From a virus: DNA of 10,238 nt. Below, piece after piece: positions 46 through 8,230 of the stretch (position 1 is the first letter of the stretch; every line of letters begins with the position of its first letter). The stretch lies in UHGV virus genome UHGV-1552609. One strand, given 5' to 3'. The translations under genes and the position numbers were made by a program. The notes beneath the pieces were generated by a model. The model was not told the DNA's origin. It saw nothing but the letters and a program-made list of their open reading frames with translations, and did not search any database.

Positions 46-718
46 GGGCTTTTTCTTGCTCGCGTTTTTTCATCAATTCCAGCACCCTTTTAGCCGCTCC
101 CATTTGCTCATCATAATCACGTTTATTTATATGAACGTTTGGTTTGCCTTTCTCGTTTCTTTCGTCTGGTGGCGTTTTAGCGCGTACAGCGGCCCTATAC
201 CCGGTCATTGTCATGCCCCATGCTTCAGATTCAGACAATCCCAGGTGAGCAACGGCGGAGTAAACATACTCAAGGATGTCGAATGTTGGCTTGTACTCGC
301 CATCCTGGGTTGTGCCCGTGTCTTCTTCTGGACCGTCACCAATTAAACCGTGATACATACAGTGTTGCGCCAGCGTGATAACGTCGCAGGTTGGCATCAA
401 TCCAGGTTTCAGTCTTAACTTACCCGAAGGAGTAAAGCTGCATTCGCCCAATAACGGGCCTATTTCGCACTCTGAGCAACATTTCAGTACGTGGATGGAT
501 GTTTGCACAAGTTCACCATAACAACGCGCCAGAATGCGATTGCGGAGGTCTGTATCCATTGGCAAACGTTGTGGGTATCTGCCACCGTGAACCGTTGCGA
601 AATATTCGACCAGTTCCCTGTCACTGCCGATCTTAGCCATTGCAGCAAAGCAGGGATTAAATTCGTAACGCCTGCCATCAACTACAACCGCAAACTGTCC
701 TGTTCGAACGTGAATCAT
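46..718 (-). CDS. Hypothetical tail-region protein, 3' end truncated at the contig/adapter junction; its position after the major tail gene is where a tail assembly chaperone usually sits, but that is unverified
   Basis: This is the track ORF 23..727 on the minus strand. The track start is GTG at 727; the ATG at 718 has a better Shine-Dalgarno (AGGGTG, 6-nt spacer). The last 7 residues (QIGRAHV) and the stop codon are encoded entirely by adapter bases 23-46, so the true C-terminus is unknown. The central region has an unusual cysteine cluster (KCCSEC...GEC...PTC...QHCMYH). Confidence 0.45.
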
Positions 719-730
719 AGTTGTCACCCT

Positions 731-755
731 AAAAATAAAGGGGCCAAATGGCCCC
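731..755 (-). terminator. Rho-independent terminator downstream of the major tail protein gene
   Basis: On the minus strand the sequence reads GGGGCC-ATTT-GGCCCC followed by TTTATTTTT: a 6-bp GC stem (plus 740-745 pairing with 750-755), a 4-nt loop, then a T-tract (plus 731-739). It lies 17 nt after the TAA stop of the 773..1249 gene. Confidence 0.7.
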
Positions 756-772
756 GATGTTAATATTTGCTG

Positions 773-1249
773 TTACAATACAGGAACGTCGCCAACTGTG
801 ACCTTGCCAGCGCTTTCGCACTCAATGGACCAGGTTGATACATCGTCGTGAGGATCCTCTTCTTTAAAGGAGGTGCAAAGGAACGGACCTTCGGTTACAT
901 CGAGCGGTGAAACAAGTTTCAGCCAGACGTAAGGCTGCGCACCAGTTGTTTCGCCAGGGTTAATAACGTGGCGTTTAAGTGCCTTCTGATTATGAATTTC
1001 TTCAGTACGGGATACGCCGTCACCTGAGAAAGAAACAGATTTGTAAGTGACCATTGATTCTTTGGTGTAGTCTGCTGATTTGTCAGCGGTGGCGTCTGCG
1101 GTTTCCCATTCTACGGAAAGAGATTTGCCACGCATCATGCCTAACGCTTTATAAGCGCTTTCTTCAGGTTTCGCATTAGGGCAGGCGATAGCGTAAAATA
1201 CGGCAACGTCGCGGCCTAAGAACGAACCTTTATCACAAGTCTGAGACAT
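773..1249 (-). CDS. Putative major tail (tail tube) protein
   Basis: 158-aa ORF with an ATG start and a strong Shine-Dalgarno (AAGAGGT, 8-nt spacer). It is the last gene before a strong terminator and follows the head-tail joining genes, which is the usual position and size for a siphovirus tail tube protein. The family assignment is by gene order and size, not confirmed by homology search. Confidence 0.5.
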   Translation of the reverse strand: MSQTCDKGSFLGRDVAVFYAIACPNAKPEESAYKALGMMRGKSLSVEWETADATADKSADYTKESMVTYKSVSFSGDGVSRTEEIHNQKALKRHVINPGETTGAQPYVWLKLVSPLDVTEGPFLCTSFKEEDPHDDVSTWSIECESAGKVTVGDVPVL

Positions 1250-1262
1250 GTTTATTTACCTC

Positions 1263-1649
1263 TTATCTAGATATGATGGTTTGGAAAGCTACGGTGAAAA
1301 TAAAGCGCCCTTCTCTTGTCTGCATTGCAGGAATAGCGCCAATTGGTTTCATGTGTGTAATTTTATCAGTTTTATACTCGGTTATCATACTTTGGCGTAT
1401 TGCGTCGGCGAGATCTTCCACTTCACTAATATTTGCATCGTTACGCGCTGAAATAACCAGGATGCGGAAATAGTCACGGGTTACTGCTTCTTCACCAGCC
1501 GCACCGCCGTTTTGCTGTATGACAATGTACCTGTCGTTATTAGAATTGGATCGCTCATTCCAGAAACGGGCCTGCAAAATATAACCTTCGTCGTACCCGT
1601 GGGACTTAATCCAATCCCTTATTTCGTCATATACTTCGCTGCGTTTCAT
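1263..1649 (-). CDS. Putative tail completion / tail terminator protein
   Basis: 128-aa ORF whose ATG overlaps the upstream stop in an ATGA arrangement (1646-1649), indicating translational coupling. It sits immediately upstream of the major tail gene. Function is inferred from position only. Confidence 0.4.
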   Translation of the reverse strand: MKRSEVYDEIRDWIKSHGYDEGYILQARFWNERSNSNNDRYIVIQQNGGAAGEEAVTRDYFRILVISARNDANISEVEDLADAIRQSMITEYKTDKITHMKPIGAIPAMQTREGRFIFTVAFQTIISR

Positions 1650-4600: not shown

Positions 4601-5890
4601 TTAGAAATAAGTGTTAAAGTCTGGTACTTCGCCTTTTTTACCTTCGCTTGCTGCGTTGGTTGCCATCGGCGCTGCTTTGCCCAGGGATTTAAACATTGCT
4701 TCTAACGCTTCACCACTTAATGCGTTAGCAACAATTTCGCCGTGTACTTTTGCTACTGCGGCGCGTTTTTCTGCTACTTCTTTATCTGCGTTTGCTGCGA
4801 TCTCTTCTTTAATCGCTTTCTGGTTGGTCTGCAATTCTTTTTGGTTGGTCTGTAATTCTTCAACGCTTGCCTGTACTGGTTTAAGTGCTTCAGCTACTGC
4901 ACTGGCGATATTAGCGGCTAAACCTTCGTTAATTTCTTTTACCAGTTCGGCGCGTTCTTCTTTGGTCAAAGGCATGGGTTCACCCTCCGATTTATTGGCC
5001 TTAATTTTTTCATTCAGGGAGAAAAGATTAGATAAGTGTTCAGCGAACTGAGCGAACCACGATTTACTTTCCTCATTGGTTGCAAGCTCGCCATTATTGA
5101 GAATTATTTTATCAGCCTGTTTTTCATACGTGCAAACTTGAGCACTTTCAGTATTAGTGGCGATCGTCACTTCTTTATCAGTGAAGTCCACCACATACAC
5201 ATAATCGGCATCAGGGAATAATTCCCGCGCCGCGTCAGTTAATTGTTTCTCAAGCGTGCGATAGCTGTTTTCTTTCATTGCCACCGCCATTAACGGCTTC
5301 GCCTGGTCAGTGTTAACCATCAGGCCAACACCCTGTTCTGGCGATGCGGCTGGCGGTTCATGAAGTAGGATGGCGTCATGGTCGATTGACATGATTTTAA
5401 CCACGCTGTCAGCACCCTGTGCTTTCATTTCTTCAGTAGCTGGCATACGCTGACGATATACGGCAACAGATGACCAGATCGGATCTTTGCTTTCACCTTT
5501 TTCCAGTGCTTCGAGTCGGCTTAATAATTCGCGACCTTGTTCTGAATGGCTGGCGGTTTCAACATCCACCCATTTTTCCACATAAACACGGTTGCCACGT
5601 AATTCAACATTTCTGTTCCACGCTCCGCAAAAGCCAATATTCAGACCTTCCGGGCTAAATGCGGAAACAAATTCACCGTCTACGGTAGGATGACCCAGCG
5701 GCGCAAGCGTACCTTCCAAAGATTGATAATTAGCAATGATTTCAGCTTCCGGGTAATATTCCCGATTCATAACGATATTAAAGGGCAACGTATACGACGG
5801 AACCACAATGTGTTCGCGACCGTTATATGTTTCCCGGCGGATGGTATTAGCGGTTAATTTGGTATTAACCTGAATCAGTTCTTTATTCAC
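4601..5890 (-). CDS. Putative capsid scaffolding protein with an N-terminal domain of uncertain function (possibly prohead-protease-like or DUF2213/XkdF-like, from memory only)
   Basis: The track ORF is 4601..5905 with a TTG start. A GTG at 5890 lies 5 nt after the TAA of the upstream gene and has GGGAG 8 nt upstream, so I favour 5890. The C-terminal half is Ala/Glu/Lys-rich and helical in character, with a tandem ELQTNQK-ELQTNQK repeat, as expected for a scaffold. The N-terminal region contains GREHIVVP...YYPEAE. Confidence 0.5.
   Translation of the reverse strand: MNKELIQVNTKLTANTIRRETYNGREHIVVPSYTLPFNIVMNREYYPEAEIIANYQSLEGTLAPLGHPTVDGEFVSAFSPEGLNIGFCGAWNRNVELRGNRVYVEKWVDVETASHSEQGRELLSRLEALEKGESKDPIWSSVAVYRQRMPATEEMKAQGADSVVKIMSIDHDAILLHEPPAASPEQGVGLMVNTDQAKPLMAVAMKENSYRTLEKQLTDAARELFPDADYVYVVDFTDKEVTIATNTESAQVCTYEKQADKIILNNGELATNEESKSWFAQFAEHLSNLFSLNEKIKANKSEGEPMPLTKEERAELVKEINEGLAANIASAVAEALKPVQASVEELQTNQKELQTNQKAIKEEIAANADKEVAEKRAAVAKVHGEIVANALSGEALEAMFKSLGKAAPMATNAASEGKKGEVPDFNTYF
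4820..4861. repeat. 21-bp tandem direct repeat (2 units, 2 mismatches) inside the scaffold gene
   Basis: Plus strand 4820-4840 ctggttggtctgcaattcttt and 4841-4861 ttggttggtctgtaattcttc. On the minus strand these encode ELQTNQK twice; both mismatches are synonymous. Confidence 0.9.
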
Positions 5891-5895
5891 GGTTT

Positions 5896-6840
5896 TTACT
5901 CCCAATCTTCGCCATATTTAGCGTGCGCAACCTTATAGTTTTCTTGCGCCCGATCTAATATTCGTTTGTTTAATATGTTACCAGATTCATCGACCATCAC
6001 GGTAATAGTGCTACATTTGCAGTTAATTGAATTTGGGGATCTGCTCCACCATTCGCGCTGCTCTTCTATGGTGTACGTTTTCCCGTGCCGCTGTGCGTGT
6101 GATAACCTGGTAGTCGGTGACAGTGCAGAAATGTGCATCTGCATAGTGCGCAAGTTAAGCTCATCCGATGCGGCCTCTGCCTCATCCATACGAGCTGTGC
6201 GTAACGCTGTGCATATTTCAGTACGGGCAATACGTTTACACCTGTATAGCGGCAATTGCGTTTCCTGCTGCAATGTGCGTGCTATTTCCAGTGGGTTTAA
6301 GCCACGGGCCATGCCTTCAGTTAATCGGCGAGCCATATCCTTCTTGATCTGTGCTGTAAGCCCGCGCATCTCTTCAAATACACGGGTACGGACCAGGGCA
6401 AGGCGTGTGCGATATGTCTGACTGGTTAATACCGCCGACACTTCTGGATAAGCTCTGGAATATGTGACTGACTGGTTAGAGAGGTTGGCATATTCCTGTG
6501 AAGTGCCGCGCTGATATGCCACCTTCACGTAATTCTGCCAGAACCAGAAGTTTTCAGGGTCTGTTAACTCGAATATTTCATCAATCATGTCGCTGGCGTC
6601 TTCCAGCAAATCATGCAATTCGTCAATGTAGATCTGGAAGGTGTACTTCTTATTAACAGCCAGGGTATATTGTATTCTGTCCAGTATGGCAATATACGGA
6701 TCCGCGACTTTCTTCAGGCAGGCTTTAAAACGCTTGATAGCTCCCGACCGTAACTTACCTGTCATGGTCGGGTCTTCGGTGTTAGATGGCATTATAGCGG
6801 CTGGAGGTATTCGCCTGATTATCTTCTTCACCTTCATCAT
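5896..6840 (-). CDS. Minor head / head morphogenesis protein, Mu F-like (SPP1 gp7 family)
   Basis: 314-aa ORF with an ATG start preceded by GAGGA (5-nt spacer). It lies immediately downstream of the portal gene, as in SPP1 gp6/gp7 and Mu, and overlaps the portal 3' end by about 59 nt. The region GLNPLEIARTL...RIARTE resembles the Mu F-like domain as I recall it. Confidence 0.65.
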   Translation of the reverse strand: MMKVKKIIRRIPPAAIMPSNTEDPTMTGKLRSGAIKRFKACLKKVADPYIAILDRIQYTLAVNKKYTFQIYIDELHDLLEDASDMIDEIFELTDPENFWFWQNYVKVAYQRGTSQEYANLSNQSVTYSRAYPEVSAVLTSQTYRTRLALVRTRVFEEMRGLTAQIKKDMARRLTEGMARGLNPLEIARTLQQETQLPLYRCKRIARTEICTALRTARMDEAEAASDELNLRTMQMHISALSPTTRLSHAQRHGKTYTIEEQREWWSRSPNSINCKCSTITVMVDESGNILNKRILDRAQENYKVAHAKYGEDWE

Positions 6841-8152
6841 CGTTTTCCTCTTCCGTTTCTACTACACTGGCAGGGCCATCGTATCCGGCAGCCTCGCGGA
6901 TCTCGTCACCGCTAAATATTTCTTCACCAGTAGCCAGACAAGCCTGATTGATTTGTGCCATTTTGTATGCCGCTTCCAGTAGTTCGGCTTTAGTCATGGC
7001 GTTCAGGTCGTCCCATATAACTGATACATCAATTGGCATACTGATAAGGCGGAGATCTGCCATCTTGCGGAATAGTTCCTCAAGCTCGCCTCCGATTTCC
7101 TCGCGGCGGGTCATACAGCGGCTGTTGAAGTAGCGGAGATCTTCGGTTGATGCGCGTTCGCCCTGCTGGTTACCAACCAGGATGCGGGTCGGAATATCAA
7201 TACCAGCGGCGGCAGTTTGCAGGTTTACGTCATAGGTTGCTGACGGGTCAGATACGGCAGTCACTAGCGGGCTTACTGTTGCCCCCTGTAATGCCATCAT
7301 CACGTCGTTACCCTTATTCATTTCAGCCGCTGCCTCGTTGAATTTTTCGCGCAGCTCTGTGACGTCGCATCCGTATGTTGCAGCCAGAGAACGGAAATCA
7401 ATTTCTTTATCGAACGAGATAGCAAGTTGACGTGCTGCGTTTTTCAGGAATGATTCACCGCTGCCGCCTTCCACTTTCTCCAGCGAAACGAATGCGTTAT
7501 AGGACGGCTCAAGGAAAGCAATGGCATCATCAGAATAATCACCGAAGATAAATATGCGATCTGGATGTATCTTTCTTGCTATGGTCTTATTGTTAATGCG
7601 CTCCTTGTATTCCCACCATGTAGGCAGGCCATAGTTTTCTTTATCCGGGTTTTCTTCGAAGTCCTTCGGTGTAAGAGCACCAGCCCATACGGGGGTAAAT
7701 TTGGCAATGCCTACGCCTTTTGTTACTGGCTGATCCCACGGCTGGTTATCTCTGACATGAATTAACAGGCCAGCATAACGACCGATGAGGCGGCGGCGGT
7801 CGCATTCGGCAATGACACGCCAAAATCTGTTATCAAATTGTTTCTTGATTTCTCTTTCCCAGGGTGTTTCCGTTTCGGCTTTCTCGTCTTCGGTTCCTTC
7901 AATCATCGTTGGCCTGGTGCGCCAGCAAGTTGTGATAATCTTTTCTACAGCACCATGAGCGATACCACCGCGCCTGTACAGTTTGTATAGATCGTCATAC
8001 GTGATCTCTTCTTTGAATCCGTATTCACTCCACGCAGCATCGCGTTTGGCATCTATCCCCATAGTGAATGGGTTGGCGGCTGCATAGCGGGCGTAGGCCG
8101 CCTGGCGTTGAGACAAGGCAGCATTAACCGCCAATTCTAAATTGGATGGCAT
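6782..8152 (-). CDS. Portal protein
   Basis: The track ORF is 6782..8173 (463 aa). The ATG at 8152 (MPSNLELAV...) is preceded by AGGAG with an 8-nt spacer, whereas the first ATG at 8173 has no Shine-Dalgarno. Its size, its position immediately after the large terminase gene and its strongly acidic C-terminal tail are consistent with a portal. Confidence 0.7.
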   Translation of the reverse strand: MPSNLELAVNAALSQRQAAYARYAAANPFTMGIDAKRDAAWSEYGFKEEITYDDLYKLYRRGGIAHGAVEKIITTCWRTRPTMIEGTEDEKAETETPWEREIKKQFDNRFWRVIAECDRRRLIGRYAGLLIHVRDNQPWDQPVTKGVGIAKFTPVWAGALTPKDFEENPDKENYGLPTWWEYKERINNKTIARKIHPDRIFIFGDYSDDAIAFLEPSYNAFVSLEKVEGGSGESFLKNAARQLAISFDKEIDFRSLAATYGCDVTELREKFNEAAAEMNKGNDVMMALQGATVSPLVTAVSDPSATYDVNLQTAAAGIDIPTRILVGNQQGERASTEDLRYFNSRCMTRREEIGGELEELFRKMADLRLISMPIDVSVIWDDLNAMTKAELLEAAYKMAQINQACLATGEEIFSGDEIREAAGYDGPASVVETEEENDDEGEEDNQANTSSRYNAI

Positions 8153-8230
8153 AATGTTTACTCCTGAATACATGTTTACGCGTTGCTACGCGAAAAATAG
8201 AAAAACTTGTGGGGGATTGTGAGGCAGATT

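Follow-up and report, generated by a model that had tools for sequence, protein, structure and literature searches.

A DUF6246 gene beside the phage tail tube gene as a probable single-frame tail assembly chaperone

Introduction

What does a cysteine-rich open reading frame (ORF) encode when it comes after the gene of the major tail protein in a phage, in the place where tail assembly chaperones normally lie, and runs open into the edge of its contig? This question is raised by the minus-strand ORF at positions 46–718 of a 10,238-nucleotide (nt) stretch of the UHGV virus genome UHGV-1552609, the whole of which is hereafter called the window. A preliminary description, made from the letters of the DNA, had held that this ORF does not look like a chaperone and had proposed a metal-binding module, a different tail protein, an accessory gene or a chaperone fused to another domain. 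Applying profile searches, gene-neighbourhood comparisons and structure prediction, we recognised the ORF as a member of the DUF6246 family, and we consider it probable that it encodes a phage tail assembly chaperone made from a single ORF, with a domain resembling the T part of the lambda chaperone fused in frame. This reading is drawn from synteny, from the similarity of the C-terminal domain to a T-type chaperone domain, and from chaperone-like fold matches.

Results

Membership in the DUF6246 family

By its profile matches, the window protein is definitely a full-length member of DUF6246 / PHROG 791. It matched Pfam DUF6246 (PF19759) with an E value of 5e-55 and 186.6 bits (cut-off 27) over profile positions 1–184 of 185, and PHROG 791, labelled ‘unknown function’, with an E value of 1e-64; these scores, far beyond chance, confirmed that the ORF is real. 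A search of 1.8 billion cluster representatives yielded 372 matches, of which 155 members were aligned, and the 150 matches listed spanned 114–240 amino acids (aa), most of them about 190–240. With tblastn, the family was recovered from 328 phage records whose hosts include Salmonella, Klebsiella, Pseudomonas, Escherichia, Vibrio, Aeromonas and Mannheimia, among others. Most of the 60 matching records that were listed name the protein ‘hypothetical’, and the family is not called a chaperone in these 60 sampled records, nor in Pfam, PHROGs or NCBIfam. No match was returned by a PDB sequence search or by NCBIfam. A literature search retrieved nothing on the function of DUF6246, nor on PF09550, DUF2376 or TIGR02216, and the paper on the mEp phages, which carry the nearest relatives of the window, does not discuss the DUF6246 gene.

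A conserved place between tube and tape measure genes

In the window, the DUF6246 gene follows the gene of the major tail (tube) protein (773–1249, minus strand; Pfam Phage_tail_2, PHROG ‘major tail protein’) and an intrinsic terminator (731–755, minus strand), both present as first described. The stem-loop of this terminator, GGGGCC-ATTT-GGCCCC at 755–740, has six G-C pairs and a 4-nt loop and leads into TTTATTTTT, with its T tract. The succession of tube gene, DUF6246 gene and tape measure gene was observed in all seven related loci inspected, the window itself displaying the tube side only, and between the DUF6246 and tape measure genes these loci hold only morons, or nothing at all (phi297, Akira). 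The position of DUF6246 is exactly the lambda G/GT slot, which bears out the earlier placement of the ORF in the tail assembly chaperone slot.

The surroundings of the gene vary from phage to phage around this constant order. In ES18, gene 16 is followed by a terminator, the DUF6246 member gene 17, three morons and gene 21; in Akira, four reverse-strand morons separate DUF6246 from the tube gene, and the DUF6246 stop overlaps the start of the tape measure gene; and in Mannheimia phage 535AP2, a HicAB cassette lies 5′ of the DUF6246 gene and morons lie 3′. The mEp phages and the closest metagenomic relatives (96% identical) share the order DUF6246, terminator, reverse-strand moron(s), tape measure gene. 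In phi297, tube, DUF6246 and tape measure genes succeed one another with no other gene between, the DUF6246 stop abutting the tape measure start, and the DUF6246 gene is there the sole chaperone candidate. Terminators are annotated at the same tube/DUF6246 junction in mEp554, mEp021, ES18 and Mannheimia phage 535AP2. Furthermore, Phage_tail_2 tube proteins are common to the window, ES18, phi297, the Mannheimia phage, the Rhodobacter phage RcapNL and loci of the gene transfer agent (GTA) type.

A C-terminal domain related to the frameshift-added T domain

When 126 family members were scanned singly against Pfam at E ≤ 10, two families besides DUF6246 recurred, namely Phage_TAC_6 (PF09550) in 26 of the 126 (best E 2e-5) and Phage_TAC_11 (PF11836) in six. 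The four Phage_TAC_6 matches that were located in full-length members all fell in the C-terminal domain (P0045, residues 148–200; P0050, 164–192; P0107, 129–159; P0163, 149–203), and that of P0045 reached 25.3 bits, over the cut-off of 23.4. Of 20 members scanned individually to place the matches, none carried Phage_TAC_11.

The identity of Phage_TAC_6 was clarified by RcapNL_00016, a 190 aa protein of the Rhodobacter phage encoded between a GTA-g9-like tube gene and the tape measure region, whose N-terminus is a Phage_TAC_11 domain (35 bits). Its homologues are only 116–157 aa long (most 125–147) and cover 51–76% of it. In four RcapNL-related loci, a G-like ORF carries A_AAA_AAA at codon 113–114, and an ORF of 50–61 aa in the −1 frame stands directly before the tape measure gene; in L011 this ORF is marked Phage_TAC_6 and comes after a Phage_TAC_11 gene. 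Conceptual −1 fusions give GT products of 190–197 aa, collinear with RcapNL_00016. Since the −1 frame ORF adjoins the tape measure gene and the fused products match RcapNL_00016, Phage_TAC_6 is the equivalent of T, the domain added by frameshifting. At this G/T frameshift site, RcapNL itself (L007 10354–10926) has an A7 run versus an A9 run in its four relatives (L008–L011), which brings G and T into the same frame and makes a 190 aa ORF; this in-frame GT is either a natural fusion or a homopolymer sequencing error, and the A9 runs could act as sites of transcriptional slippage instead of ribosomal frameshifting.

Aligned with hhalign to the five GT products, the DUF6246 profile was collinear over 178 columns (query 14–209, template 2–189), with a score of 33.9, an E value of 1.2e-4 and a probability of 55% (72% in global mode); 20 column-shuffled controls scored at most 17.8 and the reversed template 12.4. 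Taken separately, the C-domain against the T-part scored 22.0, versus a mean of 9.5 (standard deviation 1.7, maximum 13.0) over 40 shuffles. Other searches returned negative results: home-made hidden Markov models of the GTA-type G family (120 sequences) and of the T part (5 sequences) gave nothing significant against DUF6246 members, and a profile search of a large protein database with the family alignment recovered DUF6246 members only, with no bridge to chaperone families.

Predicted structure and domain architecture

An AlphaFold (AF2) model built with the 126-sequence alignment reached a predicted local distance difference test (pLDDT) score of 93.1 and a predicted template modelling score of 0.80. 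Its N-terminal part comprises a beta hairpin (residues 9–20), helices up to residue 81, a second hairpin (91–105) and a helix (110–126); these are followed by a linker, a small helical C-module (148–188) and a long terminal helix (199–223). In a Foldseek search of BFVD, the model matched five family members and then RcapNL_00016 as the first non-family hit (E 5e-4), and several proteins named ‘tail assembly chaperone’ came next (E 0.05–0.65).

Four segments can be delineated on the minus strand. The N-terminal alpha/beta domain (aa 1–127; 338–718) holds the lineage-specific cysteines and the conserved Cys81, and would be a G-like domain that binds the tape measure protein; structure and synteny are the grounds of this model-derived proposal. 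It is separated by a variable acidic linker (aa 128–147; 278–337), with the lowest conservation (0.25) and lower pLDDT, from the most conserved module (aa 148–200, FDILEYVYSAVAHLGLSESEAWGMTMTGYRAAVRAKTPP...; 119–277), which is Phage_TAC_6-like, i.e. T-like. In the hhalign alignment, the GTA-type KKK|S frameshift junction falls opposite the acidic linker. The last segment is a Lys/Glu-rich helix (aa 199–224; 47–124; conservation 0.29), and the charged Lys/Glu-rich tail of the preliminary description was indeed found, over aa 185–224. The mean top-residue frequency is 0.57 in the C-module, the best-conserved segment, and 0.25–0.45 in the segments of the N-domain.

Taken together, the Phage_TAC_6 matches, the profile-profile match to GT products, the fold matches and the synteny contradict the initial impression that the ORF does not look like a chaperone. 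The suggestion of a chaperone fused to another domain came close to the evidence, which points to a G-like N-domain with a T-like domain in the same frame; the G-like part of this description has no significance by sequence. Overall, the sequence and fold comparisons lean towards the chaperone class without being decisive.

A probable chaperone gene with no conserved frameshift

A slippery sequence followed by a −1 extension, as expected of a chaperone gene pair, was searched for at the suggestion of the preliminary description; the window gene has no slippery heptamer, and no extension is conserved among the loci examined. No in-frame X_XXY_YYZ heptamer exists in the DUF6246 genes of the window, mEp554, mEp021 or ES18. 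Heptamers do occur in Akira, phi297 and the Mannheimia phage, at non-homologous positions and with stops within 0–21 codons. The out-of-frame stretches that remain open past the stop measure 56, 31, 27, 2 and 1 codons and vary in frame and length among close relatives; those of the mEp phages read into the terminator and the antisense strand of a moron. Akira and phi297 have no space for an extension, as their DUF6246 stop coincides with the start of the tape measure gene. A programmed frameshift was rejected on account of the four genes with no heptamer, the lack of a conserved extension and the presence of the T-like module already in frame.

A GenBank note on ES18 gene 17 mentions a ‘possible +1 frameshift at 3′ end of gene’. 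In this phage, the +1 frame contains a 35-codon ORF (L003 5608–5715) that overlaps the stop and is open for 27 codons beyond it, an extension that is not conserved, being absent from the mEp phages, Akira and phi297.

Such observations bear on whether the gene could yield a conventional pair of products through non-canonical recoding, by a +1 shift of the ES18 type or by a shift in the linker giving a short G-only form. The ES18 annotation with its open +1 frame speaks for it, as does the very common use of frameshifting in this slot (PMC10274946). We nevertheless hold a two-product chaperone to be improbable, given the four genes with no in-frame slippery heptamer, the inconsistency of the extensions among close relatives and their collision with terminator and moron antisense in the mEp phages, the want of space before the tape measure gene in Akira and phi297, and a T-like domain that is already in frame. 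The programmed −1 frameshift of the chaperone class has no counterpart in the DUF6246 genes examined, and this feature is frequent, not universal (PMC10274946): 347 SEA-PHAGES genomes have a single chaperone gene (PMC10274946), and non-frameshift chaperones exist in T4-like phages (as cited in PMC10274946).

The cysteine cluster and the question of a metal site

The window protein contains eight cysteines (C23, C66, C80, C81, C84, C93, C111 and C120) in 224 aa, the maximum of the family, of which the median among the 155 aligned members is three; exactly one Cys is present in 26 of the 155. The Cys/His spacing given in the preliminary description was miscounted, being off by one, and the true pattern is C80-C81-x2-C84-x8-C93-x17-C111-x8-C120-x2-H123. 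Only C81 corresponds to a residue that is usually Cys (95% of members). At the other positions, Cys occurs in 1% (C23, where Ser is usual at 85%), 5% (C66, variable), 18% (C80, usually Ala), 1% (C84, usually Asp/Glu), 3% (C93, variable), 1% (C111, variable) and 6% of members (C120, where Leu is usual at 88%). As judged from this alignment, the seven cysteines other than C81 are specific to this E. coli lineage. No zinc-domain profile matched the window protein in the Pfam scan. Because only C81 is conserved, 26 of the 155 members have a single Cys and no zinc profile matched, a multi-cysteine zinc module is, on sequence grounds, not a property of the DUF6246 family, and the metal-binding module first suggested fails for these same reasons. 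The preliminary description would have abandoned its reading for a standard, well-described tail protein family with unconserved cysteines; DUF6246 is a known family and the cysteines are not conserved, but a DUF is not ‘well described’.

Four residues are conserved singly, namely Cys81 (95%), Asp85 (82%), His123 (79%) and His158 (87%), and C81, H123 and H158 occur together in 109 of the 155 members (70%). These could form a single metal site or a catalytic-like triad, or could have a structural role. The eight cysteines in 224 aa, together with this candidate Cys-His-His(-Asp85) site of co-occurring residues, are what would recommend a zinc-binding accessory protein or moron as the product of the gene. 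We find this very unlikely, as seven of the eight cysteines are lineage-specific (1–18%), with Ser usual at C23 and Leu at C120, single-Cys members exist, zinc-domain profiles gave no match, and the gene, in contrast to the flanking morons, recurs in synteny in distant phage lineages.

Limits of the gene and the adapter at the contig end

The ORF starts at the ATG at 718–716, has 224 complete codons ending at base 47, with codon 225 represented by its first base at 46; the genuine part thus exceeds 220 aa, as originally stated. A Shine-Dalgarno sequence AGGGTG (725–730, minus strand) lies 6 nt 5′ of ATG 718 and includes the GTG at 727 that the ORF finder took as the start, and DUF6246 family alignments begin at MIH..., fitting ATG 718. 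At the other end, bases 1–45 are the reverse complement of AGATCGGAAGAGCACACGTCTGAACTCCAGTCAC followed by CTTGTA and ATCTC, which we take to be the Illumina TruSeq indexed adapter (index CTTGTA). This contig end is not phage sequence, and it is found with 100% identity at the ends of many unrelated phage records; other records of public phage collections end in the same adapter. Through it, the ORF acquires a spurious C-terminus, ...IGRAHV*, and is wrongly called as a 234 aa ORF starting at GTG.

It is only because the adapter stands in place of its last few bases that the ORF remains open at its 3′ end. PHROG 791 is covered at positions 3–226 of 227. The nearest DNA relatives, the non-lambdoid E. 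coli phages mEp554, mEp010, mEp021 and mEp044 (90–93% nucleotide identity), have homologues of 226 aa ending in ...EQEKARN*/G*, and metagenomic proteins at 96% (P0001) and 94% identity measure 225 and 226 aa. As the relatives end at 225–226 aa, the window copy lacks two codons and the stop, with 224 complete codons present out of 225–226 for the gene at 46–718 (minus strand). The truncation first noticed is therefore genuine at the boundary and trivial in extent.

The openness of the ORF at the contig boundary was also what had allowed it to be envisaged as the N-terminal part of a tape measure protein interrupted by the end of the contig. This has a negligible probability: homologues end two codons further and are followed by a terminator, and the tape measure protein of the relatives is a separate ORF of 782 aa further downstream (TIGR02675, TMP_3). 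The stop of the relatives at 225–226 aa and this separate gene ruled out a tape measure fragment.

The remainder of the window and the neighbouring morons

The window is a single long late operon on the minus strand. Its head part comprises the terminase small and large subunits, portal, head morphogenesis, PHROG 760 protein, decoration protein and major capsid genes, and after the latter come four small connector/unknown genes, the tail terminator protein gene (1263–1649, minus strand; Phage_tail_terminator_3) and the major tail protein gene. The PHROG 760 protein (434 aa, unknown function; 4601–5905, minus strand) occupies the scaffold/protease position, and the helical C-terminal part of this protein contains a perfect tandem heptad duplication, ELQTNQK-ELQTNQK. 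Counted from its first ATG, the head-morphogenesis ORF (5896–6840, minus strand) overlaps the end of the portal gene (6782–8173, minus strand) by 59 nt; as its mEp021 counterpart is annotated shorter (870 nt vs 945 nt), the true start probably lies downstream of this ATG.

In related phages, the gap between the DUF6246 and tape measure genes is a moron hot-spot whose content varies between close relatives (L001 5385–5936, L002 5536–5952, L012 5693–6067). The L012 gap encodes a reverse-strand protein of 124 aa with a lipoprotein-like signal peptide (…LLAGC…), and that of mEp554 contains small membrane-like reverse-strand ORFs; the gap is annotated on the structural strand in mEp554 (mEp554_92, _93) and on the opposite strand in mEp021 (mEp021_63). 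Morons also occur on either side of the DUF6246 gene in ES18, Akira and the Mannheimia phage (HicAB, Imm, DUF4041).

Discussion

A proposed mode of action and its weak points

The lambda G/GT paradigm is reportedly that of Xu, Hendrix and Duda (2004–2014). By analogy, the N-terminal alpha/beta domain (aa 1–127) of the DUF6246 protein would coat the tape measure protein, keeping it soluble and extended, and the C-terminal module (aa 148–200), as the counterpart of the frameshift-added T domain, would recruit the Phage_tail_2-type tube protein. The tube would then polymerise around the tape measure, displacing the chaperone, which would be absent from the virion. With both modules in one reading frame and no programmed frameshift, a single product of roughly 25 kDa would be made, and the terminator 5′ of the gene would probably lower its expression relative to that of the tube protein, keeping the chaperone sub-stoichiometric. 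The conservation pattern fits this scheme, the C-module being conserved like its presumed tube partner and the N-domain variable like tape measure proteins. Chaperone function, binding partners and absence from virions are all deduced here from computational analysis.

Several points weigh against this interpretation. The C-terminal fragment of the window protein matched Phage_TAC_6 with an E value of only 0.18 and 12.7 bits, under the 23.4 cut-off. The N-domain scored 13.5 against the G-part, next to a shuffle maximum of 13.4, which is not significant, and no N-domain match emerged when DUF6246 was compared with the G-only family by hhalign. The hhalign probabilities obtained with the GT products are moderate and are based on five sequences, and the window itself contributes synteny on the tube-gene side only. 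In addition, an excess of GT is said to be harmful in lambda (Xu et al. 2013), so that a GT-only system would need a different stoichiometric logic. Lastly, absence from the virion is read indirectly, from annotation labels only: in the mEp021 record, which draws on virion mass spectrometry that mapped 16 virion proteins, the homologue mEp021_62 does not carry the virion label, a pattern consistent with a non-structural role.

The same labels bear on whether the product is instead a minor structural protein of the virion, associated with the tube or the tape measure and not a transient chaperone. The location of the gene inside the tail module would suit such a protein, and the seszw records label it ‘putative tail protein’. 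This alternative appears unlikely to us in view of the unlabelled mEp021 homologue, of the similarity to a chaperone-specific T-type domain and to chaperone folds, and of profile searches in which the window protein matched no structural tail family.

Implications of a chaperone fused in frame

If the chaperone reading is extended to the whole family, DUF6246 would represent a large, previously unrecognised class of chaperones with a T-type domain permanently fused in frame, where assembly would proceed with GT only and with no control of the G:GT ratio; we see the chances of this broader proposition as evenly balanced. The proposed class spans ES18-like, mEp021-like, Jersey/Akira-like and phi297-like siphophages, among others. 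Within it, the upstream terminator may compensate for the absent G:GT control, and the near-invariant Cys81, with His123 and His158, might constitute a functional site unique to the class.

If true, this reading would assign a function to a family that still has none in Pfam, PHROGs and NCBI, and would reveal a natural and widespread chaperone with its two modules joined in a single frame. It would also offer a convenient system to address why most long-tailed phages set the G:GT ratio by frameshifting. Relative to the known databases, the chaperone assignment and the ‘in-frame GT’ architecture are a modest addition. As for the cysteine-rich and truncated look of the gene that raised our initial question, it reflects lineage-specific residues and an untrimmed adapter, not a new metal-binding tail gene.

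Comparison with known systems

With lambda gpG/gpGT (Phage_TAC_2 + Phage_tail_T), DUF6246 shares the slot between tube and tape measure genes, the logic of an N-module followed by a C-module, a total length close to that of the GT product and, presumably, a transient role. No sequence match to the lambda families is detectable in the DUF6246 protein and, unlike in lambda, there is no −1 slippery site or separate T ORF; with both modules in a single frame, no G-only product is expected.

Among members of the family itself, ES18 gp17, the founding phage member of DUF6246, is 39% identical to the window protein over 95% of the protein and is likewise flanked by a terminator, between tube gene 16 and tape measure gene 21. 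It has two Cys, versus eight in the window protein, and its record carries the +1 frameshift speculation that finds no counterpart in the mEp lineage.

Proteins of solved structure with the chaperone fold, a small alpha/beta unit, are also to be named among the closest systems, these being Rbstp2171 (3FGX), HK97 gp13 (2OB9), YqbN (3KLU) and ORF12 of the lactococcal phage p2 (3D8L).

Finally, the GTA-type or RcapNL-type system (Phage_TAC_11 with a Phage_TAC_6 −1 extension) shares with the window phage the Phage_tail_2 family of tube proteins, and the profile of its GT product aligns collinearly with DUF6246 over the whole length. The C-domain motif ...G.S..EAW.MT... of DUF6246 corresponds to ...G.LP.E.RAMTP.E... 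in the GTA-type proteins, and both continue with a tail of the form P-[ST]-x-x-[DE]-[YF]-[DE]-E. RcapNL_00016, at 190 aa, is a single in-frame ORF too. GTA-type genes differ from DUF6246 by the A-run slippery site at codon 113–114 and the −1 ORF of 50–61 aa, and by a shorter N-domain that lacks the extra beta hairpin and helix of DUF6246 and whose similarity to it is not significant by sequence; moreover, unlike the GTA-type, DUF6246 is found mainly in phages of Gammaproteobacteria.

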